A stretch of DNA of 64,000 bases from NCBI GenBank assembly GCA_020725315.1, contig DYFG01000001.1:17015-81014 (forward strand), written 5' to 3'. Source of the DNA: Nitrosotalea sp. GTDB lineage: Archaea > Halobacteriota > Syntropharchaeia > Alkanophagales > Methanospirareceae. This document shows, one piece after another, positions 15,653 to 46,930 of this stretch. Every line of letters starts with the position of its first letter. Position 1 is the stretch's first letter. The notes beneath the pieces are model-generated. The model made no database searches. It was not told where the DNA came from and was given only the letters and a program-made list of their open reading frames with translations. A program made the translations under genes and the position numbers.

Positions 15653-17149
15653 CTATTGACCTTTGATAATAATCCCGTCCGACGCATCGTCGGCAAGACC
15701 GCCCGCGTAAATCTTATTCGGATCATTAGGACAGAACGTAAAGTCGTTGATACGATCCGCCGCAGGCAGAATACCAACTGTAGCGCGAGGATCAAGAGTC
15801 CAGCTATACCCACCATTAATCGTGCGGTAAAGACGCGCAGCAGGCGCAGCCGTAGCAGCAGCGATAAACCCAACAGTCTCATTCGACCACCCGATCTTCT
15901 GGATCGACGCCGGGGAACCTTTTAGACCCTTTTCAGTCCAGTGTTCGCCGCGATCTGTCGTCACATACACTTTGCCGTTAGCCGTACCAACCCACCACTC
16001 CTTCTCACCGCGCATCGCCACGGCGGTTAGATTAACACCGGGTGCCGGACCAGTCACCGCTGAAAAGGTACTACCATCGATGGTATACACTACAGCATTA
16101 TTGTCGCCAACAGCGACAATATTATCTGTATCATACGCATCAACATCATGCAAATCTTCAGCCGTTGCGCTACCGGCGTCCATAACTTCTACGCCATCAG
16201 CCGGGGAAGCAGAGAAATACACATACCCACCATCCCCAACAATCCACGTATCAAGCGGCGAAACGCTGACAATCGCGTTTGGCTCTCCACCAATCACAAA
16301 CCCCGCAGTGACTTCTGTCCAGGGATCAATTTCCCCATCCAAGATGTCATCCAACGTAGCATAGTGCAGAGAGTTTGTTTCGTTACTGATTACAACATAA
16401 CTATCCGACACAACCGCGCCATCAGACACATTATCAGCCAACGTCAACGTGTTAATAGGTGACTCAACGACTGTAGAAAACCCATCATTGGTAGCAATTA
16501 CTTCAGCCAAAACACCGGGGCTAGAACCAGGAGCATTAGCAAGCGCGAAAATTTTGCTACATCCATCGCTAGGATCAGCACAATCACCACAACCTGCCTC
16601 GTCACCATTACTAATAGCCACGATCTCTTGACCGACAAATCCCGCCGCAACTTCTGAATACCGCATTGGGATGATTTCGTACATAGTACGGGCGCTGATT
16701 TCTACTTCTTCATCAATGCCCGCCTGATCGTCGCCCGACATTGCTCCAATGTCAGTTGTACCATAGGAGCTAATCAGAGCATTTTCAAAAACCTGAACCT
16801 TTTCGTACCCCAAGTCAAAGTCGCGCGGATCAGTACACGCGCCAAGATGGATTTGAACATCAAAGGCGCAACGTAGCTTCGCCAGCTTAAGAACTTCCGA
16901 AAGATCATAAGTCAACCGGAAGGTAAGCGGCAAAGTCACACGATCCGCCGCCCCCTGAAATTCGGAAGCGGTAAGCCACGAATTATATCTGGTAGGATCA
17001 GGAACCTCGATACTAGTCACATCTCCCTGACCATAATCAAGAGAGCCAGCAACCGCAAACCCATGAAACATAGGCGCGTGATCGTGTCTGGCTCGAAATT
17101 GGATCGTGAAGATACGACTACTACCAGACTTTACAATTGTATCAGCCAT
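15653..17149 (-). CDS. putative major tail protein with C-terminal BNR/Asp-box beta-propeller-like repeats
   Basis: 498-aa gene in the syntenic position upstream of chaperone and tape measure. C-terminal motifs TTDRGEHWTE and TINGGYSWTL. Confidence 0.4.
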   Translation of the reverse strand: MADTIVKSGSSRIFTIQFRARHDHAPMFHGFAVAGSLDYGQGDVTSIEVPDPTRYNSWLTASEFQGAADRVTLPLTFRLTYDLSEVLKLAKLRCAFDVQIHLGACTDPRDFDLGYEKVQVFENALISSYGTTDIGAMSGDDQAGIDEEVEISARTMYEIIPMRYSEVAAGFVGQEIVAISNGDEAGCGDCADPSDGCSKIFALANAPGSSPGVLAEVIATNDGFSTVVESPINTLTLADNVSDGAVVSDSYVVISNETNSLHYATLDDILDGEIDPWTEVTAGFVIGGEPNAIVSVSPLDTWIVGDGGYVYFSASPADGVEVMDAGSATAEDLHDVDAYDTDNIVAVGDNNAVVYTIDGSTFSAVTGPAPGVNLTAVAMRGEKEWWVGTANGKVYVTTDRGEHWTEKGLKGSPASIQKIGWSNETVGFIAAATAAPAARLYRTINGGYSWTLDPRATVGILPAADRINDFTFCPNDPNKIYAGGLADDASDGIIIKGQ

Positions 17150-17469: not shown

Positions 17470-18699
17470 CTAAGAAGTAAGTGGTGGTATAACTCTCCGC
17501 ACCCCATCAGCATGAACCTGCGAGTAAAGATGGATAGCGGCGGTTGTTGTTCCAAACGGATTATGAAGAAGGGCATAAGGAAGCGTATAACTTCCGTCTC
17601 TTGTATTACGAGAACGGTCCTCAATCTGTTTCTTCCATATATTATGTGTGTTGGAACAGCCACAAATTTCTGTATCTAAGAAAGTCAAAGCGTAATAAAC
17701 AATTGCCCGTTCCCATTCGGGACTCATCTGGCGGGTGGGCATGGGGAGATCATTATTTACCAGCCCTGCCCTATAGTTGATTGTTGTACGAACTGGCCTA
17801 CCTGCAATGGTACAGCCTAGATTAGTATAGGTTCCTGTCTTTTCATCCCACGTCCCTGTTTGATAGGTTAACAATCCTAGACGACTATCTTTTATAGTCA
17901 TACAACCTGTTTGAGTAGACTCAGTACAAGGCCCATCACAAGGAACAGGAGTATAGTAAAAGGTTACTTGCTGAGAGGGATCAGTCCATACACGATAAAC
18001 ATCTACTGAAACCTCATAGTTGCCCGGATCATCCCCATTAATGACTAGCGGCTCCCCGCGCACATCTACCATACGAGATACAAGCGTTCTGAGCGGGACT
18101 AGGTAACGTGGAAATTCAATCGTTGCAATCCCCTCTGTAATCTCAATACTTTTAACAGGACGAATCTCTGAAGTATCTGCCCCGTTGGTGCCTGTGAAAT
18201 AGATATAGAGTTCTTCCGGATCTGTTACGTCTGTTGCAACGGAAACTTGTGCTATTTCTTCAAACCCATCCCCATCGTAGTCAACAAAGGCGATTGGTAC
18301 ATCTTCTTGAACAAGTGTCTTTGTCTTTTTACCAGGGGCATACACATAACCATATCCCGATAAAAGAGACTTTGGTTTGCCTAGTGCATTATAGAGCGAA
18401 GTAGTCTCCGGTCGATAGTGCGTAGGCAAATGGACTTCTTCTTCAGTAACCCAATCAAGCACAGGAAACCAATTAAGCTGTCGGATTGTAACCTGCTCTG
18501 CCTGCCGCAAGGCATTGGCTAGACTTTCCCTTGACACCTTTCCGGCGTTTTGATAGTCATACTGAAACCATATATCATCACATGACTCATAGGCAGGTCG
18601 ATGGCTGGTGACGATACCGTTGAAATGGTATGGATCGATACCCAGGTGGTATGCCACCCGATCCAGCGGAATGAGTGTTCTTGTGTCTGCCCAAGCCAT
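17470..18699 (-). CDS. hypothetical structural protein (start probably the internal ATG, MAWADTRT, overlapping the upstream stop)
   Basis: Listed as 17470..18816. Using the internal Met gives a typical ATGA-type overlap with the upstream gene. No motifs. Confidence 0.35.
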   Translation of the reverse strand: MAWADTRTLIPLDRVAYHLGIDPYHFNGIVTSHRPAYESCDDIWFQYDYQNAGKVSRESLANALRQAEQVTIRQLNWFPVLDWVTEEEVHLPTHYRPETTSLYNALGKPKSLLSGYGYVYAPGKKTKTLVQEDVPIAFVDYDGDGFEEIAQVSVATDVTDPEELYIYFTGTNGADTSEIRPVKSIEITEGIATIEFPRYLVPLRTLVSRMVDVRGEPLVINGDDPGNYEVSVDVYRVWTDPSQQVTFYYTPVPCDGPCTESTQTGCMTIKDSRLGLLTYQTGTWDEKTGTYTNLGCTIAGRPVRTTINYRAGLVNNDLPMPTRQMSPEWERAIVYYALTFLDTEICGCSNTHNIWKKQIEDRSRNTRDGSYTLPYALLHNPFGTTTAAIHLYSQVHADGVRRVIPPLTS

Positions 18700-18989
18700 T
18701 AGACTAATCTTTCTATTAAAATAGCTACCGTACTTGCTGCTAGTATATATAAAACAGGTGGGAAAATGAAATAGGTAAGCGTACAAAGAAGAGCAACCCA
18801 CACGCTTAGGCACCAAAAACAGGAAAACAGTTCTCCTACAAAGTTGTCAGGATATTCTGTTACCTCTAACGTACTATCCCACTTCCCACCTGCCAGCCGC
18901 CTAACAAAACGGGCAATACCCTCTCGATGAATAATACTTGTTAGACGCCACGTAGCTAATGCTACTATCAAAGCATCTAACGATTCCAT
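18699..18989 (-). CDS. small membrane protein with CxxC (FSCFWCLSVW)
   Basis: 96 aa, one or two hydrophobic segments, CFWC motif. Confidence 0.35.
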   Translation of the reverse strand: MESLDALIVALATWRLTSIIHREGIARFVRRLAGGKWDSTLEVTEYPDNFVGELFSCFWCLSVWVALLCTLTYFIFPPVLYILAASTVAILIERLV

Positions 18990-21829
18990 TTCTTAACCGC
19001 TTCACGAATCTGTGCCAGCCGAGAATCACCAATTCCCTTAATCGAAAGAAGTTCTGCATCAGACGCTTGCGACACCTGAAAGATATGGGTGTAATTCCGC
19101 CCCAAAATCGTAATTACTTCTTCCGGCAGGTCTAGCTGGTCAATCTTTGCAGTATGAACGTCCTTCTGAGCAGACGGCTCTTTGAGAACTTCGTTAGTTG
19201 GCGCTATAGGGGCCTCTTCCTGTTTAATGGTAACTGTTTGTGCAGGTCTGTGAGGCTGCTCCTCTGCCAAAACCAAATCCGGCGAAGACGTGAGCCATTC
19301 TACATCTTCAGGAAATACATTAATGAGTGTATCAACCCCACCAATCCGATACGTAACCCCCCTGTGTGATCGAGAAGGAATACGCCGAAATTGTTTTTGC
19401 TTGCCTACATAACGTAGTGTAACCATCGAATCCCCCGATACTACAGACATAGTTTTAATAGTTGTACTTTTAGGAACAACCACAGTGGACTTCTTTCCAC
19501 CACAGCTTTTGCACATATCATTTCCTTTTAACACATCAGAAATTAAATTAGCAAATTTATTACGTACATATTGTACCAAAGATGATGATTTTTCAAAATT
19601 ATCCTCGCGCCGCATCCCGCTTTTCATGTTGTAGTAGAATAGTGGAGAGGCAATTCTTGTACCACAAATGCCCCTCTCCAACAGGGAAAGATGGAAAATC
19701 CAATCTTCCCAACCGGGAGCCTTTTGATCAAACCCCACTGCTTGCACATCTGCCGTTCTGTAAATGCCCGTAATAGCAGAAATGCTTTTACGAACTAGCC
19801 GTTCAGAACTCCACTCTTCAGACGGTTGTTTAACTAATGTGCCGTTATTATCTTTGTATAGCCAGTCAGAATAGTACCAACCACAATTACTCCCCTCTAT
19901 AGCAGCCAGGAAAATGTCTATTGCTTGTGGTTCTAATAGATCATCAGCATCCAAGAAAACAATATATTTCCCTCTTGCTGCCATAATCCCCTCATTACGA
20001 GCTTCGGCTACCCCACTGAGTTTGCCCTTATCAATAAGGGTCACAAAAGGAAACCCATTTAAATAATAGTCTAAAGGCTCTCCGGTATCATTAACAACTA
20101 TTACTTCCCATTCTTCATTGGTTTGGGCCAGCAGACTATCCAAAGCCCCCTGCAAATAAGGACCATGCTTAGGTCCAACAGGGATTACAACCGATACTTT
20201 TGGATCAGAGTAGGCGGCTATTGGATAGCCAAAACCTTCATACTCAGTTGCTCCGGCAGGCATCAGTAAATCATTCTTACGCCAGGGAAACCAAGCCGTC
20301 CAATCCTCTCCCTGATTACTGTTACTTAAAGACTCTCTACGAATCCTATACAACAAGGTAGGATTTGAAGTAACCTGCTTTGCAGTACAGTTATATGAAA
20401 GTGCCCTCGTCCAAAAATCCGCATCTTCTACCCCGGTTCTAATTCTCCGCCGATACCCCCCAACAATCTCCCATACCTTACGACGATACATACTAGAATA
20501 CATCAACTGGTTACGCCGATTTAGTTGTTGTCGCAGACTTGTAGTAGCAGGGGGCCATTGTGAAACAAATGTCTTTCCTGTTTCATCAAACACCTGCATA
20601 GCCCCATATGCAATAGAGAGGGAACGATCCTCGTCAAGTGCCTTAGAAAGAATTTTAACCGCACCAGGAGCAAGACGATCATCGGCGTCTAAGGGTAGAA
20701 TATATTTTCCTTTTGCTGCACGAATACCTATATTCCTGGCTTCTGCTACATGAACATTTTGTTCTAACGCAATTAAACGAATCTTATCTTTATAAGACTC
20801 TATAATTTCTAATGAGTTATCCGTAGAAGCATCATCCACTACAATCACTTCCCGATCCTCTTGTTCTAGAGCAGAATCAATAGCCTCTCCTACAAACTTT
20901 CCGAGGTTGTGATTGGTAATGATGATGGAAGTTTTGACTTCCGGTTTGTTGCTTATAGCTTCTTCGTACACAGTTCCATATTCTAAAGCAACGTCCTTCC
21001 ACTGATAACGATCTATAACTACCTGCCGAGCCGCTGCTCCTAGTCTTTCACGATGTTCGTAACAATATCTAATACCACGAATCATATCTCCGAAGGAGTC
21101 TGCTACATAGCCCGTTTCTTTGTGGACAATTACCTCAGCAGTTCCCCCATCATTCCATGTCAGTACAGGTACCCCACAAGCCATTGCTTCCAACACACCG
21201 AAACAAGGGCCACCTGTTTCTTTGGCAGTGGCGAGATAAACTGCTGCCCCTTGTACCAGCCTCTTCATTTCTTGTGGAGTCTGTTTGCCAACTACTTTAA
21301 CATTAGGGGCCTTATTTCCAAACGTAGTAACAAAAGTAGTTCCTGGAAAATGAGTTGCTAAGTCATTTACGATCTTTGGATCGCAAGCTATATCTGCCCT
21401 AGCTTTATTCCACAACACATAGCGCCCATTCTCTCCTGGTACCCACTCATCTGTATCTATGCCATGATGAACCAACCGAGGAGAGAATAAGAAATTCCTC
21501 TCTATGGCATACTGTACCCAACGAGAAGGGACCGTTACCAAGTCTGCCATACGGAAAGCATCAATGATACTTCTATTTAAATGTGCGGTCCACCTTGCCC
21601 ATCCCGGTTGATCTTTCGTCCAGTATAGTCCATGATTGCTTAGAACAATAGGAATATCTTTTGGATAAGAAGCTGGAAAGTTTGCTATATGAACATTTAG
21701 TACATCTGCTTTAAACGGATCATCAACTACCTCAATTCCCACACGCGGGAGCCAAGTGTGCTGTCCTTGTATGACACGATAAATACCGTCATTACCGTTC
21801 GGTATAGAGGGGGAAATATAAACCTTCAT
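18977..21829 (-). CDS. multi-domain glycosyltransferase: GT4-like N-domain, two GT2 domains, C-terminal HhH-like tail
   Basis: GT4 motif ETGGPCFGVLEAMACGVPVL. First GT2: IIITNHN..EVIVVDDASTDNS..LPLDADD. Second GT2: VSVVIPVG..EVIVVNDTGE..FLDADD. C-terminal LLSIKGIGDSRLAQI. Confidence 0.8.
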   Translation of the reverse strand: MKVYISPSIPNGNDGIYRVIQGQHTWLPRVGIEVVDDPFKADVLNVHIANFPASYPKDIPIVLSNHGLYWTKDQPGWARWTAHLNRSIIDAFRMADLVTVPSRWVQYAIERNFLFSPRLVHHGIDTDEWVPGENGRYVLWNKARADIACDPKIVNDLATHFPGTTFVTTFGNKAPNVKVVGKQTPQEMKRLVQGAAVYLATAKETGGPCFGVLEAMACGVPVLTWNDGGTAEVIVHKETGYVADSFGDMIRGIRYCYEHRERLGAAARQVVIDRYQWKDVALEYGTVYEEAISNKPEVKTSIIITNHNLGKFVGEAIDSALEQEDREVIVVDDASTDNSLEIIESYKDKIRLIALEQNVHVAEARNIGIRAAKGKYILPLDADDRLAPGAVKILSKALDEDRSLSIAYGAMQVFDETGKTFVSQWPPATTSLRQQLNRRNQLMYSSMYRRKVWEIVGGYRRRIRTGVEDADFWTRALSYNCTAKQVTSNPTLLYRIRRESLSNSNQGEDWTAWFPWRKNDLLMPAGATEYEGFGYPIAAYSDPKVSVVIPVGPKHGPYLQGALDSLLAQTNEEWEVIVVNDTGEPLDYYLNGFPFVTLIDKGKLSGVAEARNEGIMAARGKYIVFLDADDLLEPQAIDIFLAAIEGSNCGWYYSDWLYKDNNGTLVKQPSEEWSSERLVRKSISAITGIYRTADVQAVGFDQKAPGWEDWIFHLSLLERGICGTRIASPLFYYNMKSGMRREDNFEKSSSLVQYVRNKFANLISDVLKGNDMCKSCGGKKSTVVVPKSTTIKTMSVVSGDSMVTLRYVGKQKQFRRIPSRSHRGVTYRIGGVDTLINVFPEDVEWLTSSPDLVLAEEQPHRPAQTVTIKQEEAPIAPTNEVLKEPSAQKDVHTAKIDQLDLPEEVITILGRNYTHIFQVSQASDAELLSIKGIGDSRLAQIREAVKKWNR

Positions 21830-21831
21830 AG

Positions 21832-22518
21832 CTAGCCTACATCGGGAGCGACAGAGTTAAGCGAATAGTCCATACCTATGTTCTTAAAGGGAGAACATTG
21901 AAAATGAAAGGGCATATTACCAGGCCACAAGATTTCGGGTGCGTTATGCGTGTCGTTATACCGTTTGCACATTTCTAGTTCTTCTTCACCAGGAGAGACA
22001 CCTTCTTGATGGTATCCCACGCTGTTGTAAAACCGTTCATGCCGGAAAGAACACTGACCGGAATAGACATAGACACCTGATCCTTGTTCTAACTTTAGGT
22101 ATGTCATGCTACTATACCCAACAAACGACGCTTTCATATCCGTAGACAGGTATCCACAACGAATTATACCAACAGACGGCTGTGTTAACAAAGTGTCTAC
22201 ATAAGGATCAACATTAAGCGGCTCTACTAATACCCAATCATCTTCTGTCATAAAGACTATTGGCGAAACTAAAAACGCCTGCTTTAGTGCTAGGTTCTTC
22301 GATACACCCACCCCACGACGATTCGCATTTGTAACAATAACCCTCTCTTGTGTGTCTATCAAAGAGGTTAGCTGATCGACATACCCATCAGGACTACCAT
22401 CATCAGCAATAATCCATACCCGGTTCCCATATTTTAGGTTCTCTTTCAAAGAGAGCAAAGTTTGGGTAGCTGTGTGTAACCGATTATATGTTGTGATAAT
22501 AATGCTTAGAGGTTCCAT
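21832..22518 (-). CDS. family 2 glycosyltransferase
   Basis: SIIITTYNR ... WIIADDGSPDGY ... TEDD. Confidence 0.7.
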   Translation of the reverse strand: MEPLSIIITTYNRLHTATQTLLSLKENLKYGNRVWIIADDGSPDGYVDQLTSLIDTQERVIVTNANRRGVGVSKNLALKQAFLVSPIVFMTEDDWVLVEPLNVDPYVDTLLTQPSVGIIRCGYLSTDMKASFVGYSSMTYLKLEQGSGVYVYSGQCSFRHERFYNSVGYHQEGVSPGEEELEMCKRYNDTHNAPEILWPGNMPFHFQCSPFKNIGMDYSLNSVAPDVG

Positions 22519-24579
22519 CTATACTCCATATAAAGCGTGTGTCGTGTCCAACATCTCTAGCAGTTCTTTGGCAGACAAAAACCTGCTAGGTTTGTCGCTG
22601 GTATACGAAAACGGCGCACTCTCGTTCCTAAATGAAGACGTGGGTGGGTGGATAAGATAGAAATTACCCTTATCTTCTGTATAAAAGGATTCCGCCTCGC
22701 TAACCATTCCTTCATGGATTTTTTCGCCAGGACGCAAACCTATATCCACTATTGCTAAATCTTGTGCGAACTCCTTAGCAAAATCAATCATTAAAATACT
22801 AGGAGCCTTTGGAACCAATATAACTCCCGGCTCGGTTTGTAGGGACATAAGGACTTGATTAATGGCTTCATCTATTGACAGAAAGAAACGAGTCATACGA
22901 CGATCTGTGATTGTAATCGGTCCACCAACCTTAGCCTGATGTTCCCACAAAACTGCCACAGACTGATTAGAAGCCAGCACGTTACCATAACGAGTAATAT
23001 GGAAACTGGTAGCTCCATACTTATTAGCATCTTGAAACACATACTCTACCATCTTCTTGCCAACACCATAGGCGTTTTCAGGCGAACAATTATGTACTAC
23101 CACACTACCCGACACAAAAGTATGCGTATCTTCTACGTCAATACAATATACATCTCTTGATGGAGCTTTATATTCATTAAGAATGGGAGTATCTATATAA
23201 CGTTCTGCTGTTCCTAAATCCCAAAAAGTAGGATCGTAATCTATATAGTCAATTTTATTAGACATTTCAGGCAATATTCCTGGTCTAATAAAATTGAATA
23301 GAGATTGAGTACCCTCAACAGTAAATCTAAGTTCAGGATAATATTTTCCGGCTACTTTAACTAATAAATAATTACACTCAAATCCCCTGTTTGTTAAAAA
23401 CTCACATAACCAAATAACTTCTTCCTCAGTAAACCCATGAGTAGCTAGACGCGCAGATGGTCTAGAGTTCCCCCCGTTATTATGACTAATACATCCATCA
23501 TCCATAAACCAAGCTGCCATAAGATAGGGAGAAAAATATTTTTCTAGTAAATGCTTGGGAACTATTTTCGCTTTATCCGAATAAAATGCCTCTCTTAGGT
23601 TTCCTAGTGTTGCATAGGCTCTGGAAGAGGATTTACAGAAATTATTTTTTCCCTTTTTACTTCTCGTTTTAATTTCGCTAAAAGTAAACCCCCGCAGGGC
23701 TGCTGTTTTCGTTTCTAGCCACTGTCGTTGTCTCTCCGAATGACCAATAGTCAGCCGACTGCGGCGACTTTGTGTTAGGCTGCTATCGCCTAATAAAGTA
23801 CCTACAAGTAGTCCATACTGTTTAAAGTTTGGTTCTGGTTCATTAGTTATTATAAAATGATTGTCTGTTAAACTACCGGCAGGAATCCATCCTTTGGTTG
23901 TCAGAATAAGATGATCTTCTGTAACTATAGTACCAGACAACTTACCCACATGCAGATATGCTCTACGGTAAGTAAGTCTATATCTTTTCCTGCCATCCAA
24001 TTTATTTTTGTACCACCCCACCACTCGCCCTAACTTCTGTTCCCCCGTATTAGGATCAATAGTAACTACTTCGCCATCATAACGTTCTTTAACCAACTCG
24101 CCTATTGGCTTAGAGGTTCCGTCTGCCAACAAAACCCTAGCGTGCCAATCAAGACAGGCTTTGTCGGTGCTTGTCGTAACGACCTGAGACACTCCCATAT
24201 CAATTGCGGCCTCAACAACCTGCTGAGAACCGTAGATATTTGTTTCTATCGTAGCAGCAATGTTGTTTTGAGCAGAGGGTACCTGTTTATAGGCAGCAAA
24301 GTGCATTACTATGTCAACACCGCGCATGGCCCGTTTGAGATCATTATAACGAGTTATGTCTCCCAACACATATTGGTGTTCAGGAAACTTTTGACGAAGG
24401 ATGCTTTGCTTTGTTTCGTCACGCGAAAAAATTACAAACTCTGCTCCCCAAGAATTTCGTCGGGCGCGAGTAAGCACAGCCTTTCCGAGAGTACCCGTTC
24501 CGCCAGTAATTAGTATTTTTTTACCTTCCAACATCTTCCCGTAAGGATCAGAATTTGTTATCCAGGTTTCCATCATCAT
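22519..24579 (-). CDS. NAD-dependent NDP-sugar 4,6-dehydratase/epimerase (CapD/PseB-like) interrupted by an intein
   Basis: Rossmann motif ILITGGTGTLGKAV. Catalytic region STDKA then intein then CSPENAYGVGKK, corresponding to STDKAxNPxNxYGxTK. 686 aa in total, of which 356 aa is intein. Confidence 0.75.
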   Translation of the reverse strand: MMMETWITNSDPYGKMLEGKKILITGGTGTLGKAVLTRARRNSWGAEFVIFSRDETKQSILRQKFPEHQYVLGDITRYNDLKRAMRGVDIVMHFAAYKQVPSAQNNIAATIETNIYGSQQVVEAAIDMGVSQVVTTSTDKACLDWHARVLLADGTSKPIGELVKERYDGEVVTIDPNTGEQKLGRVVGWYKNKLDGRKRYRLTYRRAYLHVGKLSGTIVTEDHLILTTKGWIPAGSLTDNHFIITNEPEPNFKQYGLLVGTLLGDSSLTQSRRSRLTIGHSERQRQWLETKTAALRGFTFSEIKTRSKKGKNNFCKSSSRAYATLGNLREAFYSDKAKIVPKHLLEKYFSPYLMAAWFMDDGCISHNNGGNSRPSARLATHGFTEEEVIWLCEFLTNRGFECNYLLVKVAGKYYPELRFTVEGTQSLFNFIRPGILPEMSNKIDYIDYDPTFWDLGTAERYIDTPILNEYKAPSRDVYCIDVEDTHTFVSGSVVVHNCSPENAYGVGKKMVEYVFQDANKYGATSFHITRYGNVLASNQSVAVLWEHQAKVGGPITITDRRMTRFFLSIDEAINQVLMSLQTEPGVILVPKAPSILMIDFAKEFAQDLAIVDIGLRPGEKIHEGMVSEAESFYTEDKGNFYLIHPPTSSFRNESAPFSYTSDKPSRFLSAKELLEMLDTTHALYGV
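23089..24156 (-). mobile_element. intein with LAGLIDADG homing endonuclease inside the dehydratase gene
   Basis: Starts CLDWHARVLLADG (block A) and ends VVVHN followed by +1 Cys. LAGLIDADG-type motifs LLVGTLLGDSSL and LMAAWFMDDGCIS. Confidence 0.6.
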
Positions 24580-24648
24580 TCCTTATACAACAAAAGGGGT
24601 TACTGTAATAATAGTATCACAGTAACCCAATCTTGTCAAGTATTTATT

Positions 24649-25833
24649 TTATTGTCCGTGAGTCCAGGTAGTATATCCCATCCCCTTACCTGGGGGGCCT
24701 ATCGTAGTCTCAAAATCTGTACCTGCGTAGTAGTTCACTACATAAGGAATCCACATATCATCCCCACTTACAGGGAACTTGAACACTGGATCGTTTTGGC
24801 TAGCCTCTCCCAAACCATACACCATATTAAGTGCGCGAACAATTGCATTATCTCCTGCGTCAAAAGGCAACAAACCTGCTCGATGAAGAATGACAGCGGT
24901 TACAACAAGTCCTTGCAAACCTTCATGCATGTAACCGGACTTTGTGGGGGGCCATTTAAATTCCCCTCCCCTTCGCCAGTCTTCGGGCAAGACTCCACTC
25001 ACAGAAACGCCGTTGATAGTAGAGCCTTTTCGGTTTATTCCTGCCTTATTATCAGGATCAGCGTGCCACGTTGTGTTATCGTATTTAAATTTAGGATCGG
25101 GCACAGGCAGCCCTATCATTTCCTTTTGTGCATTAACCACGTCTTCTTTCCAATCGTCACGATCTAAATAGATAGCGGCAGCAGCCAAACTTGCCCTTGC
25201 ATGTGCTCCCCAATTAGTCGCAGAATACAGGGCAGTTCCATACAACCCACTATCCCCTGGGGCAGAATGGTCAGGAATACCTGCTACAACTACTTCAGCC
25301 AACCACTCTTTAAAATCTGACTCAGTATACCCTATCAGATCAGCCGCTATTACGTAAGACTGCAATCCTCTAGACAGTTCCAACGAGCGATCAAGGCTGC
25401 TTTGCATAGCGGATCGCAAACCTTCTACAACCTTGTTTCGCATATTAGCATCTTCTAGACGAACGGCTACCAAAGCGCCTGCCAGAGTCTTTACATCGTG
25501 CTGACTATTATTATCCGCTAAATCAGCCCTTCCCCAATTGCTGTTAGCGGCCTCAAGAACCTGTTCCCAAGCTTTGCCCTCTGTAGGAAGCGCCATAATT
25601 TCTTCGGTAGACAACCAAATTCCCTCAGAAGTACCAGGAACTTCCGGTTCTTCGTCAGGCGGTTCTTCGTCAGGCGGAAGTTCTGGAATCTCATTCAACA
25701 CATCTTCAATTGCAGTTACCCGATCTTCCAACCCCCTAACAGACGACTCTATTCTAGTTAGCGCCGCATCAATCTCGTCTAGCAAACTATTAATACGTTC
25801 AAATTCTTCTTCAGGAATTTCGAACAGTCCCAT
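24649..25833 (-). CDS. putative polysaccharide lyase / glycan-modifying enzyme. N-terminal coiled coil and acidic PPDEEP repeat (start probably ATG at 25833, MGLFEIP)
   Basis: 394 aa from the internal start, which has GGGAG 9 nt upstream. The C-terminal domain has a weak alginate-lyase or heparinase-like look. Low certainty. Confidence 0.3.
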   Translation of the reverse strand: MGLFEIPEEEFERINSLLDEIDAALTRIESSVRGLEDRVTAIEDVLNEIPELPPDEEPPDEEPEVPGTSEGIWLSTEEIMALPTEGKAWEQVLEAANSNWGRADLADNNSQHDVKTLAGALVAVRLEDANMRNKVVEGLRSAMQSSLDRSLELSRGLQSYVIAADLIGYTESDFKEWLAEVVVAGIPDHSAPGDSGLYGTALYSATNWGAHARASLAAAAIYLDRDDWKEDVVNAQKEMIGLPVPDPKFKYDNTTWHADPDNKAGINRKGSTINGVSVSGVLPEDWRRGGEFKWPPTKSGYMHEGLQGLVVTAVILHRAGLLPFDAGDNAIVRALNMVYGLGEASQNDPVFKFPVSGDDMWIPYVVNYYAGTDFETTIGPPGKGMGYTTWTHGQ

Positions 25834-25907: not shown

Positions 25908-25936
25908 TTGACAAATCCTAATTTTGCGCTTATAAT
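25908..25936 (+). promoter_or_regulatory. consensus sigma70-type promoter, TTGACA-17 nt-TATAAT, driving the + strand moron operon
   Basis: TTGACA at 25908-25913, 17-nt spacer, TATAAT at 25931-25936. RBS AAGGAACGGG and ATG at 25960 follow. An AGACTC extension precedes the -35. Confidence 0.55.
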
Positions 25937-25959
25937 TAAGTGAAATAAGGAACGGGAAG

Positions 25960-26154
25960 ATGACAGCTAAACAGTTTTTATATGTGTTTATTGTTTTGCT
26001 TTTGATCATAGCGTTTTTAGTGGGCATTACTGATGTTATTTTTGCTATTCTAGGATTCATGTTTGGCGGTGCTTTTATTATTTTAGACAGACAAGAAAAG
26101 ATATGGGTTATGCGAATCAACACAGATGTTCACGAAAGGGGTAACGATGATTGA
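25960..26154 (+). CDS. small hydrophobic membrane protein (2 TM)
   Basis: 64 aa, FLYVFIVLLLIIAFLVGITDVIFAILGFMFGGAFIIL. AT-rich like the phage backbone. Confidence 0.4.
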   Translation: MTAKQFLYVFIVLLLIIAFLVGITDVIFAILGFMFGGAFIILDRQEKIWVMRINTDVHERGNDD

Positions 26155-26515
26155 CCAGTTGGAATGTCCCGTAGCAGCCCCCAAGCTGCTCAAGGCGAAA
26201 TCAACTGTCGTGCTTTGCTCCAACTGCAAAGCGTGGATCACTCGCTATCCGACTTTTCTCGGATATGACGACATGGATCACTGTGAGCGATGCGGTTGCA
26301 CCAGCGTCATTATGCGCGAGGGCCGTCCCTATGGTCCGAAATCGGGCTTGTGGGATTGGATCGTCGCTGAGTTTCGCGAAGTGTTCTCCCACCTCGACAC
26401 GTGGGAGTTCGAGTCCGTTATCTGTGATCCGCCAATCGAGTCGCTCGACTGGAAGGCCATTGACGACTGGTTCAATGAAAACGACTTCCACCGTGCGCCT
26501 AGAACAGTGGAATAG
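26126..26515 (+). CDS. hypothetical Cys/His-containing protein (GC-rich island; start possibly ATG at 26147)
   Basis: 129-aa ORF with CPV ... CSNC ... HCERCGC. GC is clearly above backbone. Confidence 0.4.
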   Translation: MFTKGVTMIDQLECPVAAPKLLKAKSTVVLCSNCKAWITRYPTFLGYDDMDHCERCGCTSVIMREGRPYGPKSGLWDWIVAEFREVFSHLDTWEFESVICDPPIESLDWKAIDDWFNENDFHRAPRTVE

Positions 26516-26518
26516 GTT

Positions 26519-26770
26519 ATGCGAATAGGGGAACACGAAATGAACGCAGCAGAAATTGAACAAAAGCTTGAGCAGTTAGAGCGCAAGCTTGCCCAAGCAG
26601 AGTCGGAACAAGAGAAACTAATCTCCATCATCATGCAAGAAACGGATGTATGCCTGTTTGGTGGCGGCGCTATGCGGGACGGACTCCCCCGCCGCAACAG
26701 TTGCCGCTTTGGGCATCCAGGCTGTGCGTGCGCTGATTGGATTGACGCGCACCGACCAGATAACGTATGA
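26519..26770 (+). CDS. hypothetical coiled-coil protein (GC-rich island)
   Basis: 83 aa, AEIEQKLEQLERKLAQAESEQEKL. Confidence 0.3.
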   Translation: MRIGEHEMNAAEIEQKLEQLERKLAQAESEQEKLISIIMQETDVCLFGGGAMRDGLPRRNSCRFGHPGCACADWIDAHRPDNV

Positions 26771-26807
26771 GAAGGCAGCTACCGGAAATCTATAGGAGAT
26801 GTGGTTA

Positions 26808-27068
26808 ATGCCCACCCTTTACTACCATCCCCGCCGAGGGGGAAAGGCGACGAAAGTGGCAGCAAACAGACTGGCAGTATTGGACACCATTCGAGAGCGC
26901 ACAGAAGCAGAGACACCGCCGGAATGGATCAAGCCGCTGCTGATCATTGAGGCGCTGGTGACTGAGATTGACGCGCTCAAATCTGAGATCGAACTGCTGC
27001 GTGCCGAACTGGGCAACCGTCCCGCCGAGGGCGCCAAGCCTGCGGACGTGTGGCCTGACCGCTGGTAG
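26808..27068 (+). CDS. hypothetical protein (GC-rich island; start taken at the ATG 9 nt after RBS TAGGAGA)
   Basis: 86 aa with C-terminal coiled coil EIDALKSEIELLRAEL. Confidence 0.35.
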   Translation: MPTLYYHPRRGGKATKVAANRLAVLDTIRERTEAETPPEWIKPLLIIEALVTEIDALKSEIELLRAELGNRPAEGAKPADVWPDRW

Positions 27069-27119
27069 CCGCATCTGTGCACAGTTCACACACAGCGCCC
27101 CGGTGTGTGCCGGGGCGCG
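27069..27119 (+). repeat. copy 1 of a repeated roughly 50-nt element: CCGCATCTGTGCACAGTT plus GC-rich hairpin
   Basis: Palindromic core CTGTGCACAG, then a 9-bp stem GCGCCCCGG/CCGGGGCGC at 27095-27118. It abuts the stop codon of the preceding ORF. Confidence 0.45.
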
Positions 27120-27146
27120 TCACTTATCAGAATAGGAGTACTAAAC

Positions 27147-27644
27147 ATGAAAGGACTGGAGATGAAAAAGTACCAGCTTCGGCGGGCAATTCGGCAGACC
27201 TGCATTCTTTCGCCACCGCCGCCCCACAGCGAAACGGAGAAATACGACGCTTGGACGCTAGGGCGGCTGATCGACTACACAGCGAAGGAACTTGAGAAGC
27301 AGTTGCCCGCCTACGTCCGCAAGATGGAGTCGGTTGCTCATCCCGATCCGTCTCGCCCGCTGGTTGTCATGCCGCGAACTACATCCGCCATCCCGCTCAC
27401 CGCCGACGGATCGCCTGCCTTTCCCGAACCAGAACGGATACGCCGATACGACACGGTGCTGCCGAAACGGTTTGTTGTACGCTCCGGGGATGGCCCGGCG
27501 CTCAATGTCTTCATCGGCTATTCATCGCTCATGGAGACGGTCTACTTCTTTCGCGTCAAACGGTTACTCGACGAGGCGACGATCCGCCGCCCAACATGGA
27601 AGGGGCGCAAAACACCCCTCAACCGCGAACTGCCCTACGCCTGA
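27147..27644 (+). CDS. hypothetical protein (GC-rich island)
   Basis: About 165 aa from the ATG at 27147 (RBS AGGAG). No motifs. Confidence 0.4.
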   Translation: MKGLEMKKYQLRRAIRQTCILSPPPPHSETEKYDAWTLGRLIDYTAKELEKQLPAYVRKMESVAHPDPSRPLVVMPRTTSAIPLTADGSPAFPEPERIRRYDTVLPKRFVVRSGDGPALNVFIGYSSLMETVYFFRVKRLLDEATIRRPTWKGRKTPLNRELPYA

Positions 27645-27697
27645 CCGCATCTGTAAACAGTTGCCAGATAGAGCGCCCCAACCGGGGCGCTTTTTGC
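27645..27697 (+). terminator. copy 2 of the repeated element (CCGCATCTGTAAACAGTT) plus a rho-independent terminator
   Basis: Stem AGCGCCCC (27672-27679), loop AACC, GGGGCGCT, then TTTTT at 27691-27695. Confidence 0.55.
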
Positions 27698-27752
27698 TTA
27701 TGCGAATCGACCGTTGCAAAACCCACCAGTCTCTTATGAGTGATGTCATCAG

Positions 27753-30155
27753 TTAACTCTCGCTGTAGGATACCCATGCGCTAATGAGAGATTGCAGCGT
27801 CGCAAAATGTGCGTCTGCAATTGCCTGTTTCGTGCGAAGGTCCGCGATTGATGAGACAACCACCGCTCTAATCCCATCAATCGCCTCGCGGATTTGGTCA
27901 GTAGTGACACCCAGGTTGGTGCTAAGGTCCAAGCTGGTCCATTGGGTCGGATTAGTGCCAGTGAGTTCTTTGGGTGACATAAAATAACTGTTCGTTACCG
28001 CAGAGGTCACAGAGCCGGTTAAAGAGCCGATTAGCGTATCGGTTATTGTCTGATTGCTGCCAGTGCCTGCCAGGACCGCGATCCCGGTACTCGACCATAC
28101 AATATTTTTTTGAAAGGTGCCGTTGTCCCCATCAATGACCATGCCACACAGCACGTCGCCCAGGAAGTTTCCTCGCACCTTACCATAGGTAGGATCGTGC
28201 CAAAAATGGATAGCATATCCCTCTCCGCCGATGAAGATATTTTCTTCGATCAGCGGCTCATCTTCCGCCTGGGTTATGTCATGATTAGTGTAATAAAGCG
28301 AGTGGTAATGGACTCCGCTACCGCACTCAATGAAACGGTTGCGATAGATATGGACGCGGGTAAAGTCTGAACCAAGACACTCCCAAAAACCGAAGAAGGT
28401 GTTGTACCGGACTACGCAATCAGGCTTTACATGCACGTGCTGGTTGGGGGTTGCAGGTGCAGCAGCCTTAGCTCCCCCGATCCAACACCCTTCCAGCGTC
28501 GCCCCGCTATTTACAACTACAGTGGGCGCATAGCCATCAGTGCGAGTGATTATGGGCTTTGCTCCTGCTGCTGCCTTGAGCGTGCCGCCCGCTGGAATGT
28601 TAATATGATAGCCGTTTACCGTAGTGGCCGGGTCGAGGGCATAGATTCCGTCGGCAAGCTCTACGATTCCCCCTGCCGCCAATTCCGCATAAGGGAAAAC
28701 TTGATCGCCAGTCACGGACATCGGCTCCATCAAGACGGGGTCGGGCTGGGAGACGCCGCTACCGGGGCCAAGATAAAGCTGTGGGTTAGCGTAGGCCGAA
28801 GACGAGATCGGATAACTTTGCAACCCTTCAGGTGATGTTTCTGCCGGGTATACCGCCGCGATTGCCGTTGCGGTATCCTGGTGCGACACATCCAAGATAG
28901 CACCGCGCGACGTCACCGTTTTTCCTGAGCGCGATAAAAAGCGGTGTTGTGTGCCTTCGCACATCACGTCGATGCCGGTCGGCGTCCCCACGTTCAGCAC
29001 ATCGGTCCATCCAGCAGGCACAATTTCAGAGCCGCCAACAACTTGTCGCACACAATAATCCCAGGCCGTATTTGTCTCGTTGCGCCGTATAATGGCTCTC
29101 CACTTATTATCTTGATCACCAATGCGGTAGTCGATGGATACTTCTTCGCCTGCCGATGGGGCGTCATTGAGTACAAACGTAAAACGATGTATTGCGTCGG
29201 CTGACGCTTCATACTGCGATCCAGACACTGGCTCGGTTTCGTAGACGGTGGCAAGCCCGGCGTCCGAATTGAACGGCGCTCCAAGAGCAAGCACCGCAAT
29301 TGAATCCATCTCGAATTTGTCGTTGGTAGATGTTACTCTGGTATACACATCTCCAAGGTTGTAATCATAGTATCGCGGTTTAATTAAGGTGAGTTTTGAG
29401 GTGGTGCAATTAATGTATAATACCAAAGTGTCGGTATAAATCACCGCAAACCGACGCTGGTCGCTGTAATAGCCAGAGAAAGTCTCTAAAAAGGAGAGAT
29501 AGGATGGTGAGATACGGTCTACCGGCACTCCCAACTTTTCGTTGCTAAATCCAACGCGCATGTTAGACCCGCCAGCGGTATAGTTCGTGCTAAATAATAG
29601 AGCTAACCCAGGGACAAATGGGGTTGGGCTTGCGGTAGTCACTGATATGTTGGTGGTGGCAGTTTTCGCCAGTTTGCCATTGGCAATCGAGAGGTCAGGC
29701 GCTCCCGCATCGGAAAATTCTAAGACGCCGGGACCGGGTTCACTTGTGCGTGGTGTCGTTATCGGAGCCGCATCAGCGGTTGTAAACTCATCACGCAAAA
29801 TATAGAGATCGACGGCAAGGCTAAACTGAGTTGCCGCCTTGTTGGCATTACCAGCGAGATCGGTACACACCGCAGCAGGAATGTCTACGGTGACTATGCC
29901 AACATCAATCGTTGGTGTGATCGTCGCTGTCCAGACGGTGTTATCTGCCGTGACAAAGTTTGACATCACGCAGTTGCCGAGCTTCACATCGCTGTACGCA
30001 AATCCGGTAACTTCATCGTCAAACGTGATAATAATCGTAAACGGCCCTTTGGTGGGCGCAACCGCATCGCTCGTAATCGTTACGGTCGGCCCGCTCACCC
30101 CCTGCGCCCCCCGGAACGCCGGATTGTTCAGCAGCAAACCCATCATTCCCGGCAT
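27753..30155 (-). CDS. large virion-associated protein: N-terminal Ig-like region, C-terminal right-handed parallel beta-helix (pectate-lyase fold); putative depolymerase or fibre
   Basis: 800 aa. C-terminal PbH1-like repeats NIFIGGEGYAIHFWHD..GNFLGDVLCGMVIDGDNGTFQKNIVWSSTGIAV. GC-rich relative to the backbone. Confidence 0.5.
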   Translation of the reverse strand: MPGMMGLLLNNPAFRGAQGVSGPTVTITSDAVAPTKGPFTIIITFDDEVTGFAYSDVKLGNCVMSNFVTADNTVWTATITPTIDVGIVTVDIPAAVCTDLAGNANKAATQFSLAVDLYILRDEFTTADAAPITTPRTSEPGPGVLEFSDAGAPDLSIANGKLAKTATTNISVTTASPTPFVPGLALLFSTNYTAGGSNMRVGFSNEKLGVPVDRISPSYLSFLETFSGYYSDQRRFAVIYTDTLVLYINCTTSKLTLIKPRYYDYNLGDVYTRVTSTNDKFEMDSIAVLALGAPFNSDAGLATVYETEPVSGSQYEASADAIHRFTFVLNDAPSAGEEVSIDYRIGDQDNKWRAIIRRNETNTAWDYCVRQVVGGSEIVPAGWTDVLNVGTPTGIDVMCEGTQHRFLSRSGKTVTSRGAILDVSHQDTATAIAAVYPAETSPEGLQSYPISSSAYANPQLYLGPGSGVSQPDPVLMEPMSVTGDQVFPYAELAAGGIVELADGIYALDPATTVNGYHINIPAGGTLKAAAGAKPIITRTDGYAPTVVVNSGATLEGCWIGGAKAAAPATPNQHVHVKPDCVVRYNTFFGFWECLGSDFTRVHIYRNRFIECGSGVHYHSLYYTNHDITQAEDEPLIEENIFIGGEGYAIHFWHDPTYGKVRGNFLGDVLCGMVIDGDNGTFQKNIVWSSTGIAVLAGTGSNQTITDTLIGSLTGSVTSAVTNSYFMSPKELTGTNPTQWTSLDLSTNLGVTTDQIREAIDGIRAVVVSSIADLRTKQAIADAHFATLQSLISAWVSYSES

Positions 30156-30207
30156 ATCGTCACCTCGCCCTCGCCTTTATTCGTTATGAGAATGGTCATT
30201 CTAAACA

Positions 30208-31303: not shown

Positions 31304-32773
31304 CTAACTCGTCAAGTTGTATGGCGCATTATCCCGAACCAACACACCACCATTCACAAAGTAGTGATCGTCAGGATGCGGCATACGCATTGCCTTGAGC
31401 GGCGTGTACAGGACATTCTGTAGACGAGCCGCCAAGTGCGGAGTCTGAAGGCGAAGGCGCGGTTCAATCTTGGCAGTCCACGACACACACCAGTTGGTGC
31501 GGCTGAACGTCCACAAGAACCGACCCCCATCCGTCCAAAATTCGTTGTTCAAACGCCCATCAGCAATACCCTGCATCACGCCATTAGCGGCAGAGAAGTC
31601 AAAGTATTCAAAGTACAACACCGGACGAGAACCACGAACCGTAAACGGAAGCAGATAAATATCACTCGAAAAAGAACCAGCCGGAACATTCGCGTTTTCC
31701 GCATTAGTGTCAATAGGCATATAGTCATCGACAATCACCGGAATACGCATACCGTCAAGCTCAAGATAGTTCCCATTATACATTGCATCAGACATGGCAC
31801 GCATCGCCATAGCATCAACATTGCTGCTAGGGGCACCATTGGGAAGATCGCCAGCCTGACCACAACGACCCGTCGCGTAAACGCAAGGCCAGTAATCAGT
31901 GAGAATACGGAACAAAGCTTCTGGCATCACCAGCGCCCACTGTACCGGATTCATCCCCATCGTAGTCGCATTATGCTTTACATAGCGCCACATCGTTTGC
32001 AACGTATAAAACAGACTATAAGTTGAATCTTCAGCTGAAGCGTAGTTGAAATCAACAATGTATGAGTCAAGCGACGGACAGGACGTTCCCGTAATCACAT
32101 CGGTATGTCCCGTCTTCACCAACGATTCAAGACCAAAAAATTCCTTATAACCACCACCAGCTGTATTGTTAACCGGAGTACCCGTCCACAGCATCTTGCT
32201 AAGCTTGTTCTCAAACGCCACGCCAAGCATCAGCCAACGAGCAAGAACCTCTCGGTTCAATACTGAAGCAGTTGAGTTAGGAACACTGTCAGGAACGAAA
32301 AACCCCTGATCCAGAAGCGGATCGTTAACAAGCTGAAGGTCCATAAACTCGCCACGATTGGTGCGACGGCCCACGGTATTCAGTTCAAGAGGTTCTGTCT
32401 TGCGACTCACCCGCCCAAAAACCGTACCCTGCATACAGCTTTTAATCTCGCCAGCTTCCGGCGGCTCGTCACAGACACCGTCGGCTTCATCACCAGTCTC
32501 ATCTGTAAAGCCAGTCAGATATGCCTGAATAGGATTGGTATCGACCGTACCGAACGAAGGAAGCACAGCGCCAAGCCCCGTCCCACGAACACGAGTCGAA
32601 AACACATCCCGTTCGACACCCGGCACACCAAAAATTCCGGTTGGCCCGTGCATATAATTGGTCGTCAAACTAAATCCAGCAGGAAGATCGTGCTTGTAAC
32701 CGACGCTCTTATCCTGCATCTGACTCAGTTTGGAAAATGCACTAGCCAGTTCCGCGTAATCAATGTTTCCCAT
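31304..32773 (-). CDS. putative major capsid protein
   Basis: 489-aa gene lying between the scaffold-like gene and the small downstream ORFs, the expected capsid position. Synteny plus general phage capsid-like composition. Confidence 0.5.
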   Translation of the reverse strand: MGNIDYAELASAFSKLSQMQDKSVGYKHDLPAGFSLTTNYMHGPTGIFGVPGVERDVFSTRVRGTGLGAVLPSFGTVDTNPIQAYLTGFTDETGDEADGVCDEPPEAGEIKSCMQGTVFGRVSRKTEPLELNTVGRRTNRGEFMDLQLVNDPLLDQGFFVPDSVPNSTASVLNREVLARWLMLGVAFENKLSKMLWTGTPVNNTAGGGYKEFFGLESLVKTGHTDVITGTSCPSLDSYIVDFNYASAEDSTYSLFYTLQTMWRYVKHNATTMGMNPVQWALVMPEALFRILTDYWPCVYATGRCGQAGDLPNGAPSSNVDAMAMRAMSDAMYNGNYLELDGMRIPVIVDDYMPIDTNAENANVPAGSFSSDIYLLPFTVRGSRPVLYFEYFDFSAANGVMQGIADGRLNNEFWTDGGRFLWTFSRTNWCVSWTAKIEPRLRLQTPHLAARLQNVLYTPLKAMRMPHPDDHYFVNGGVLVRDNAPYNLTS

Positions 32774-46880: not shown

Positions 46881-46909
46881 TTGACAAAAATTTACGTTTG
46901 TGTTATTCT
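46881..46909 (+). promoter_or_regulatory. rightward promoter, TTGACA-17 nt-TATTCT, preceded by AGACTC
   Basis: TTGACA at 46881-46886, 17-nt spacer, TATTCT at 46904-46909. GAGGAG RBS and ATG at 46931 follow. Confidence 0.45.
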
Positions 46910-46930
46910 GTATCTGAGGAGAAAAAAAAA

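Follow-up and report, generated by a model that had tools for sequence, protein, structure and literature searches.

A 64,000-nucleotide stretch of contig DYFG01000001.1 (assembly GCA_020725315.1, deposited as Nitrosotalea sp.), here called the window, carries a cassette of carbohydrate-synthesis genes between the head and tail genes of a phage. The core of the cassette consists, in the order of the minus strand, of a nucleotide-sugar dehydratase, a 228-amino-acid (aa) glycosyltransferase of family 2 (GT2) and a 950-aa fusion that joins one GT4 and two GT2 domains. The phage is an uncultivated siphophage of a large, widespread lineage in which the fusion is an ancestral core gene. We give an even chance to the reading that the core cassette glycosylates virion proteins in the cytoplasm with a short glycan, and the capsid and the tail tube are candidate acceptors.

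A synthesis cassette between capsid and tail genes

A first-pass annotation of the window had reported a carbohydrate-synthesis cassette of four genes among the structural genes of the phage. All four minus-strand open reading frames (ORFs) are present and their domain calls held, but only three of them are synthesis genes: the fusion (18977-21829; identified by Pfam and alignment), the single-domain GT2 (21832-22518) and the dehydratase, whose precursor ORF of 686 aa includes an intein (22519-24579; Pfam Polysacc_synt_2/Epimerase). The fourth, a lyase-like gene (24649-25833), is accessory. Because it is predicted to be degradative and is missing from all distant relatives, we do not count it as part of the conserved cassette. 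Here and below, window coordinates of genes and domains refer to the minus strand unless the plus strand is named. The 228-aa GT2, annotated as such before, matched Pfam Glycos_transf_2 with 50.2 bits and contains the motifs ADDG and EDD. The genes that run from the dehydratase to p448, a gene downstream of the fusion, are tightly packed and abut or overlap each other.

The GT4-GT2-GT2 architecture proposed for the fusion was confirmed by Pfam, which found Glycos_transf_2 in two stretches (184.6 bits) and, within aa 39-268, Glycos_transf_1 (50.9 bits, cut-off 26.4) and Glyco_transf_4 (36.5 bits, cut-off 28.5). The GT4 domain, of the GT-B type, spans aa 1-292 (20954-21829), with Glyco_transf_4 at aa 39-128 and Glycos_transf_1 at aa 175-268. 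It is followed by two domains of the GT-A type. The first GT2 occupies aa 298-520 (20270-20938; Glycos_transf_2 at aa 301-442, Glyco_tranf_2_2 at aa 302-503), and the second aa 541-765 (19535-20209; Glycos_transf_2, NCBIfam WcaA at aa 542-645 and a PHROG glycosyltransferase at aa 544-718). In an alignment of 27 homologues with 38-70 % identity, the EX7E-type glutamates of the GT4 domain, E204 and E214, are invariant, and their spacing is E-x7-E where a two-residue insert is missing. Equally invariant are D333, D381, D383 (DxD), E468 and D469 in the first GT2, and D581, D627, D629, D630, E708 and D709 in the second. Since the catalytic motifs are conserved in this way in all three domains, the domains look catalytically competent as judged from their sequences.

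After residue 770 the fusion continues with a CxxCGG motif, a beta-rich segment, a variable linker and a helix-hairpin-helix (HhH) domain. The CxxCGG plus beta-rich domain (aa 770-856, 19262-19522) matched no Pfam family; C773, C776, Y807, G809 and Y827 are nearly invariant in it. The HhH domain (aa 893-950, 18980-19153) resembles the C-terminal domain of the RNA polymerase alpha subunit (alpha-CTD). The earlier call of an HhH-like C-terminus is sub-threshold for the window protein itself (RNA_pol_A_CTD, E 0.012; HHH_5, E 0.049), but in homologues P0020 and P0056 one or the other of these families passes the Pfam gathering score with 32.6 bits each. The tail is modular. About one quarter of the homologues, which are about 780 aa long, lack the CxxCGG-HhH module, and the module also exists as a stand-alone protein of 157-178 aa. 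Whether fused or free, it is always encoded at the 3' terminus of the fusion gene or directly past it. When the CxxCGG-beta domain was the query of an exhaustive HMMER search, seven matches came back, all of them the same module and none anywhere else.

The first-pass annotation did not recognise this fusion architecture. It is indeed unannotated, yet common in metagenomes, where we counted 945 homologues with E <= 1e-10. The best 120 of them, located on contigs of up to about 87 kb, all combine GT4 with GT2, and more than 100 full-length homologues have the same fusion architecture. Among GTDB representative genomes the fusion occurs on contigs of metagenome-assembled genomes (MAGs) only, assigned to many unrelated phyla, and in no cultured isolate. 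When the cassette was compared by Megablast with 50,697 phage records, there was no match, and tblastn against the same records with a 370-aa head-module protein (32800-33912), which is not the capsid protein, gave none either; these and other tblastn searches brought up no cultured relative.

How the cassette is arranged in relatives was assessed in 31 fusion-bearing loci from IMG/VR, JGI, Logan, ENA and MAG contigs, mapped by tblastn with the window proteins; the source names of these relatives, for example 'Portnoybacteria' or 'Bacilli', are unreliable bin labels. In all 17 loci with enough flanking sequence, the capsid gene lies upstream and the tube gene downstream of the fusion, although fusion identity is as low as 32-45 %. 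The invariant order is capsid, variable genes, dehydratase, GT2, variable genes, fusion, DUF1360, p448, tube, chaperone and tape measure protein. The argument of the first-pass annotation that position favours a virion-directed function is strengthened by this synteny. Among the 31 loci the dehydratase was found in 18, the small GT2 upstream of the fusion in 23, DUF1360 downstream of the fusion at variable distance in 25, and p448 in 26. In loci L026 and L029 both the dehydratase and the small GT2 are missing while the fusion is kept, and the fusion is therefore the core element. Conversely, the closer relatives L001, L017 and L020 add a sugar methyltransferase (Methyltransf_24), and L001 and L017 also carry an RmlD-like reductase (107.5 bits; about 270 aa in these relatives) and a second GT2. 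Neither the window cassette nor that of the closest relative, L038, has a Methyltransf_24/TylF gene, and no RmlD-like reductase was found in the window.

The head and tail flanks described earlier were also borne out, with an HK97-fold capsid gene upstream and genes for a tape measure protein and Dit downstream. Searches of PHROGs, Pfam and NCBIfam gave no match for the capsid, portal-like, terminase-like and p448 proteins, so that the identity of the capsid protein (489 aa, 31304-32773) had to rest on structure prediction; a PDB sequence search with it was likewise empty. For its AlphaFold2 (AF2) model, with a predicted local distance difference test (pLDDT) score of 75.5, the top 50 Foldseek matches in PDB are all HK97-fold shell proteins, namely 48 capsids of phages, gene transfer agents or satellites and two encapsulins. 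On the strength of this model we identify the protein as the major capsid protein, with an HK97 fold. Its C-terminal tail (about residues 458-489, 31304-31400), which is modeled with low confidence, has invariant P458, Y471, G475, G476 and Y485. Many relatives read GG-x-T/S-T/S there, and this phage reads GGVLVRD; the tail could be an inter-capsomer contact or a modification site.

Downstream of the cassette follow DUF1360, p448, p102, a 498-aa protein, a 193-aa protein, the tape measure protein, Dit and minor tail proteins. DUF1360 (96 aa, 18699-18989; 48.9 bits in Pfam) is a small membrane protein, and the start of its gene overlaps the 3' end of the fusion gene. From their order before the tape measure gene we infer that the 498-aa protein (15653-17149) is the tail tube and the 193-aa protein its chaperone. 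The putative tube protein, the second candidate acceptor, ends in a BNR/Ycf48-like propeller according to weak matches.

Codon usage provides a further line of evidence. The three synthesis genes have GC contents at third codon positions (GC3) of 0.35-0.41 and codon-usage correlations with core phage genes of 0.84-0.93. The corresponding values are 0.67-0.68 and 0.21-0.35 for two tested ORFs of a nearby GC-rich moron, 0.74-0.75 and 0.15-0.20 for two TnpB genes, and 0.55 and 0.69 for a beta-helix gene. The first-pass annotation had considered that the cassette might be a host-derived moron with host-like codon usage; the usage found is phage-like. Codon usage and conserved synteny together indicate that the cassette is ancestral and not a host-derived moron.

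The dehydratase and its intein

The dehydratase had been annotated as an NDP-sugar 4,6-dehydratase/epimerase. Pfam supports this call (Polysacc_synt_2, 224.6 bits against a cut-off of 20.2), but the intein within the ORF had been overlooked. We read the 686-aa ORF as a 330-aa UDP-GlcNAc 4,6-dehydratase of the PseB/FnlA/CapE type that would be restored by removal of a 356-aa LAGLIDADG intein. According to the alignment of the spliced sequence, the N-extein (aa 1-141, 24157-24579) ends with STDKA. The intein with its homing endonuclease covers residues 142-497 (23089-24156), as delimited by Pfam, motifs and an empty allele, and the C-extein (aa 498-686, 22519-23088) starts with CSPENAYGVGKK, as judged from alignment and comparison with L038. 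Pfam detects LAGLIDADG_2 with 85.1 bits (cut-off 25), and a match to Intein_splicing is sub-threshold (26.1 against 35.8 bits). The characteristic motifs are present in frame: Cys1 is C142, block B reads VTEDH, the intein terminates with VVVHN497, and Cys+1 is C498. These motifs point to a class-1 intein with a LAGLIDADG endonuclease, for which splicing and homing are predicted.

The insertion point is inside the active-site motif, between STDKA and the YxxxK catalytic motif. The cofactor motif TGGTGTLG (TGGTGxxG) is intact, and STDKA and YGVGK are contiguous only with the intein removed; the spliced enzyme is predicted to be active. The spliced 330-aa sequence aligns end to end, across the junction, with Helicobacter pylori PseB/FlaA1 (2gn4, E 1.7e-58). 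Further matches of known structure are a 4,6-dehydratase/5-epimerase (4j2o, 6e-54), Staphylococcus aureus Cap8E (3vvb, 2.8e-51) and Megavirus Mg534 (4tqg, 3.7e-34). NCBIfam ranks PseB and FnlA at the top, with scores below the equivalog cut-offs of both PseB (TIGR03589, 267.6 against 407.75 bits) and FnlA (TIGR04130, 189.7 against 730 bits). The PseB/FnlA/CapE subfamily is thus clear at the level of homology, and the missed cut-offs make the stereochemistry of the product not assignable.

A natural empty allele exists in L038. This Logan contig of 74,979 bp shares about 97.5 % nucleotide identity with the window (97-98 % in the intein flanks) and lacks precisely positions 23089-24156, so that its dehydratase reads STDKA-ASPENAYG. 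An allelic intein is present at the same dehydratase site in the distant relative L006, the fusion of which is 35 % identical. As in phage inteins of terminases and other conserved late or replication proteins, the predicted class-1 LAGLIDADG element resides in a conserved catalytic motif and has both occupied and empty alleles in near-identical genomes. Unlike in those cases, it is a nucleotide-sugar dehydratase that hosts the intein. Homing elements can thus exploit the active-site motif of a nucleotide-sugar enzyme, and the occupied and empty alleles offer a natural pair for splicing studies.

The window holds two more inteins. One of 369 aa with LAGLIDADG motifs (CLAGNTK ... LVSHN, then Thr; 36234-37340) resides in an 853-aa protein at the portal position. 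With 34 % identity end to end it is paralogous to the intein of the dehydratase, and it occurs in L038 too. The other, of 342 aa (Cys1 ... QGN, then Ser+1, with LAGLIDADG-like motifs; 38857-39882), is inserted at LSVF|SELWGFD in a 917-aa ORF that resembles the large terminase subunit and has a PKKSGKS Walker A motif. It is missing from L038 despite 97.5 % identity, and the protein there has 541 aa.

Proposed virion glycosylation, competing readings and known parallels

If the cassette glycosylates virion proteins, the following scheme would apply. The cassette would be expressed late and act in the cytoplasm. The 686-aa precursor would splice out its 356-aa intein, rebuilding the active site STDKA-x-SPxNxYGxxK. 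By homology with PseB, FnlA, CapE and Megavirus Mg534, the spliced enzyme would convert UDP-GlcNAc to a UDP-2-acetamido-2,6-dideoxy-4-keto-hexose. In related phages, the RmlD-like 4-reductase and the sugar O-methyltransferase could then yield a 6-deoxy-HexNAc, such as L-RhaNAc or L-QuiNAc, that may be methylated. The present phage has neither gene, and it might borrow host enzymes or make a simpler glycan. The four intact transferase sites, one in the 228-aa GT2 and three in the fusion, would add sugars sequentially. The cassette is inherited together with capsid and tail genes and lies among them, which makes a virion protein the most likely acceptor; this protein would be modified before or during assembly. 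The lack of export machinery points the same way: Pfam revealed no Wzx, Wzy, ABC transporter, initiating phosphoglycosyltransferase, polymerase/ligase or oligosaccharyltransferase in the locus and the rest of the window, and the gene tables of the relatives contain no initiating phosphoglycosyltransferase, flippase, ABC transporter, polymerase or ligase.

A number of observations weigh against this scheme. The first-pass annotation proposed looking for Ser/Thr-rich acceptor tails on capsid and tail proteins; neither the capsid nor the tube protein has such a C-terminal tail, the two share no motif, and comparing them with Che8 gp6 and gp11 brought out no convincing one. The semi-conserved GG-x-T/S patch of the capsid tail is missing here. 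The sugar pathway in the window is incomplete, with a dehydratase and neither a reductase nor an aminotransferase. GT2 and GT4 enzymes of this kind mostly act on lipid-linked or wall-polymer acceptors, a small membrane protein is encoded directly after the fusion, and the adjoining glycan-degrading genes mean that the region also handles host surface polysaccharide. The scheme does not account for the alpha-CTD-like HhH tail. Similarity to the Che8 enzymes is at the superfamily level (E 6e-4), and the Che8 genes reside elsewhere in that genome. Finally, the phage is uncultivated and no host is assignable.

The main rival of virion glycosylation is remodelling of the host envelope, in which the transferases would use lipid-linked or wall-polymer acceptors to change the surface glycan late in infection with the help of the host's initiating transferase and export. 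The purpose could be to mask receptors and block adsorption of progeny or competitors to infected cells and debris. We regard this as unlikely on balance. The curated families closest to the transferases (TuaG, EpsE, PgaC, WcaA and PglI in NCBIfam, all far below cut-off) are wall or exopolysaccharide transferases, and the PHROG labels read 'GtrB-like O-antigen conversion' and moron or auxiliary metabolic gene. DUF1360 is translationally coupled to the fusion, the lyase-like and beta-helix genes adjoin, and an integrase makes lysogenic conversion conceivable. Conversion genes are normally found close to attachment sites or, with promoters of their own, at the ends of operons, whereas this cassette keeps a strictly conserved slot between capsid and tail genes even at 32-45 % identity of the fusion. 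Moreover, no membrane-embedded transferase, flippase or GtrA/GtrB-type component accompanies it, its codon usage is that of the phage, and the fusion persists in L026 and L029 without the dehydratase and the small GT2.

The tail of the fusion suggests another acceptor, DNA. Here the CxxCGG domain and the alpha-CTD-like HhH would steer the fusion to packaged or replicating phage DNA, where a 6-deoxy-HexNAc oligosaccharide would be built on a modified base to evade restriction, by a system located inside a structural operon and unlinked to a hydroxymethylase cluster. We think this highly improbable. The HhH is a DNA-binding fold, and the phage has other DNA-modification and anti-restriction genes (Mom-like and ArdC). 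Glycosylation of 5-hydroxymethylcytosine with varied glycans is established for phage GT-A and GT-B enzymes, sometimes beside a sugar epimerase, but known pathways cluster with a C5-methyltransferase and 5mYOX or with a thymidylate-synthase-like hydroxymethylase (bioRxiv 10.1101/2023.12.21.572611). Pfam found none of those families in the scanned ORFs of the window and in about 9 kb past its right end on contig L041, a scan that covered all but about 9 kb of the roughly 82-kb genome. In addition, about one quarter of the fusion homologues do without the HhH module, and the neighbours are structural and not replication genes. In a milder version, the tail may dock the enzyme on DNA-filled capsids so that mature heads alone are glycosylated. 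Least credible of all is that the cassette is a recently acquired host-derived moron with no dedicated phage role. Foreign DNA is indeed present in the region, as the GC-rich plus-strand moron and the atypical GC3 of the beta-helix gene attest, and the TnpB elements at other positions of the window are evidence of mobile DNA entering the genome. The synthesis genes themselves are nevertheless typical of the phage in GC3 and codon usage, they are syntenic across dozens of divergent relatives, and the confinement of the fusion to MAG contigs among GTDB representatives, with no cultured isolate, also argues against a host origin.

Known systems offer partial parallels to virion glycosylation. For mycobacteriophage Che8, glycosylation of both capsid and tail tube has been reported (Freeman 2023, as cited in PMC12619734 and PMC10877033). 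Che8 encodes a GT2-Methyltransf_24 fusion (gp108), an unassigned glycosyltransferase (gp109) and a GT25 (gp110). Both Che8 and the window phage are siphophages with an HK97-fold capsid (predicted here) and have soluble phage-encoded glycosyltransferases without export machinery, and the Methyltransf_24/TylF family of sugar methyltransferases recurs in the cassettes of the window phage's relatives. Yet the mycobacteriophage parallel drawn in the first-pass annotation is looser than it suggested. There is no orthology, the best blastp match being confined to the GT-A core (E 6e-4, 23 % over 81 aa), and no mycobacteriophage is among 82 tblastn matches. The Che8 genes are at the right genome end (56.2-58.7 kb) and not between head and tail genes, and Che8 has no nucleotide-sugar dehydratase, GT4 domain, multi-domain fusion or HhH tail. 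Its acceptors are known, whereas those of the window phage are candidates.

Two eukaryotic virus systems are similar in other respects. In Megavirus chilensis, the dehydratase/5-epimerase Mg534 and the 270-aa 4-reductase Mg535 make the L-RhaNAc and L-QuiNAc of virion fibrils, and very large glycosyltransferases adjoin their genes (PMC10117803). The window dehydratase is homologous to Mg534, and relatives likewise pair it with a 4-reductase of about 270 aa. Giant-virus systems (Mg534-Mg539 and the Mimivirus fibril clusters) differ in having eukaryotic hosts, clusters of 6 to 12 genes and fibril proteins as acceptors; the window has no reductase or 2-epimerase, and the transferases are unrelated in sequence. 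The A111/114R protein of PBCV-1 is a three-domain glycosyltransferase that acts in the cytoplasm, independently of host machinery, on the glycan of the major capsid protein (PMC7826918). Its likeness to the window fusion, shared by A064R, is that of one viral polypeptide of about 900 aa with three transferase domains to add consecutive residues. PBCV-1 is an algal virus with N-linked glycans and a double-jelly-roll capsid protein, and its transferases have other domain families in another order and no CxxCGG-HhH tail. Among bacterial systems, O-glycosylation of flagellin, pilin and S-layer proteins starts with the same PseB-type step from UDP-GlcNAc, and soluble multi-domain GT2/GT4 enzymes like WbdA and WsaE add sugars processively in the cytoplasm. 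Unlike these PseB-pathway and O-antigen systems, the window lacks PseC-I, Maf, motility-associated genes, an ABC transporter and a chain terminator. By analogy, then, the cassette would work in ways resembling the Che8, Megavirus and PBCV-1 systems while being a member of none.

In the literature we found no experimentally shown phage virion glycosylation outside actinobacteriophages. According to the comparative data, a siphophage lineage has in its ancestral core a different and larger machinery that combines four predicted transferase active sites with a rare-sugar dehydratase. If its virions are coated, glycan shields would be an old trait common among phages and not a mycobacteriophage peculiarity, which would matter for the stability and adsorption of phages, for their recognition by immune systems and for their persistence in the environment. 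As a compact set of enzymes independent of export machinery, the fusion would also be of possible interest for glyco-engineering.

The lyase-like gene, the swap slot and other genes

The lyase-like protein is 394 aa long from an ATG that is also used in L038. The protein itself has no Pfam, NCBIfam or PDB sequence match, and no signal peptide was evident on inspecting its sequence. Its AF2 model (pLDDT 93) starts with a helix of 40 residues, followed by a linker that is acidic and rich in Pro and then by an (alpha/alpha) toroid. The top 49 Foldseek matches in PDB are all polysaccharide lyases (PL17, PL5, PL38, PL8 and heparinase II), at weak scores (E 1e-4 to 0.15; query-normalised TM 0.33-0.47). 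Among its aligned homologues, 25 of 40 match Pfam Alginate_lyase (PF05426; best E 9.5e-10), and some are dockerin fusions on bacterial chromosomes. The previous lyase-like call is therefore supported, and the modeled fold together with the homologues predicts that the protein degrades glycan. The gene is retained in L038. In the 69-nt gap between it and the dehydratase, a stem-loop with a perfect 14-bp stem and a T-rich run behind it (24597-24628) overlaps a promoter-like site (24611-24639). The stem-loop could be a terminator, attenuator or processing site that sets the accessory gene apart from the cassette.

The single minus-strand operon assumed in the first-pass annotation does not exist as such, as a GC-rich moron on the plus strand (25908-27693), delimited by promoter, terminator and codon usage, separates the 394-aa gene from an 800-aa gene and thereby interrupts the late operon. 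The GC-rich moron ORFs encode 129, 83, 89 and 179 aa, and none of the four has a Pfam match. The moron begins with a promoter that agrees with the sigma-70 consensus at 12 of 12 positions (TTGACA-17-TATAAT, 25908-25936) and ends with a strong terminator with a 10-bp GC-rich stem (27670-27693). Because scanned promoter and terminator sites are no more frequent than in shuffled sequence, just these two extreme sites flanking the moron were used.

The 800-aa protein (27753-30155) combines Big_12 (62.1 bits) with a right-handed beta-helix (weak Beta_helix match). The earlier description put its gene just upstream of the cassette; the gene is present on that side but at a distance of 1.9 kb, and the slot that it occupies between head genes and cassette is filled by other genes in L038. 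The slot spans 26118-30183 in the window and 12593-16151 in L038, where it contains a 252-aa protein, a 393-aa pectate-lyase-like protein and a TnpB. It is a swap site for glycan-binding or glycan-degrading modules. The first proteins of the two slots share an N-terminal M-x-G-M-M, which may be a common anchor. We take the lyase-like and beta-helix proteins to be separate swappable glycan-degrading modules; they are probably depolymerases, either borne by the virion or released at lysis.

In relatives, the variable stretch between capsid and dehydratase contains a sortase-domain protein (L001, 1891-2358), a SASA carbohydrate esterase (L017, 3092-3907) or a metallophosphatase (L020, 4091-4813). 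The sortase beside the capsid gene might decorate the capsid covalently. A DUF5662 protein is encoded inside the cassette of L017, between two GT2 genes (8775-9308), and in the window 25 kb away on the plus strand (46898-47386).

Two IS605-family TnpB (OrfB) genes (43467-44594 and 58312-59760) have 60 % GC, compared with about 44 % for the phage. The first is missing from L038, which has a different TnpB elsewhere. These genes hint that the host has about 60 % GC and that such elements actively transpose into phages of this group. Searches for tRNA genes and Rfam families were negative. Other recognizable genes of the window encode a family A DNA polymerase (74-1576, plus strand), a tyrosine integrase (3447-4397, plus strand), a Mom-family DNA-modification protein (50018-50674) and an ArdC-type anti-restriction protein with a metallopeptidase domain (57188-58192, plus strand). 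Past the window end, the 82-kb contig L041 encodes a Fic-domain protein (18022-18621) and a TROVE/Ro60-like protein (20111-21128).

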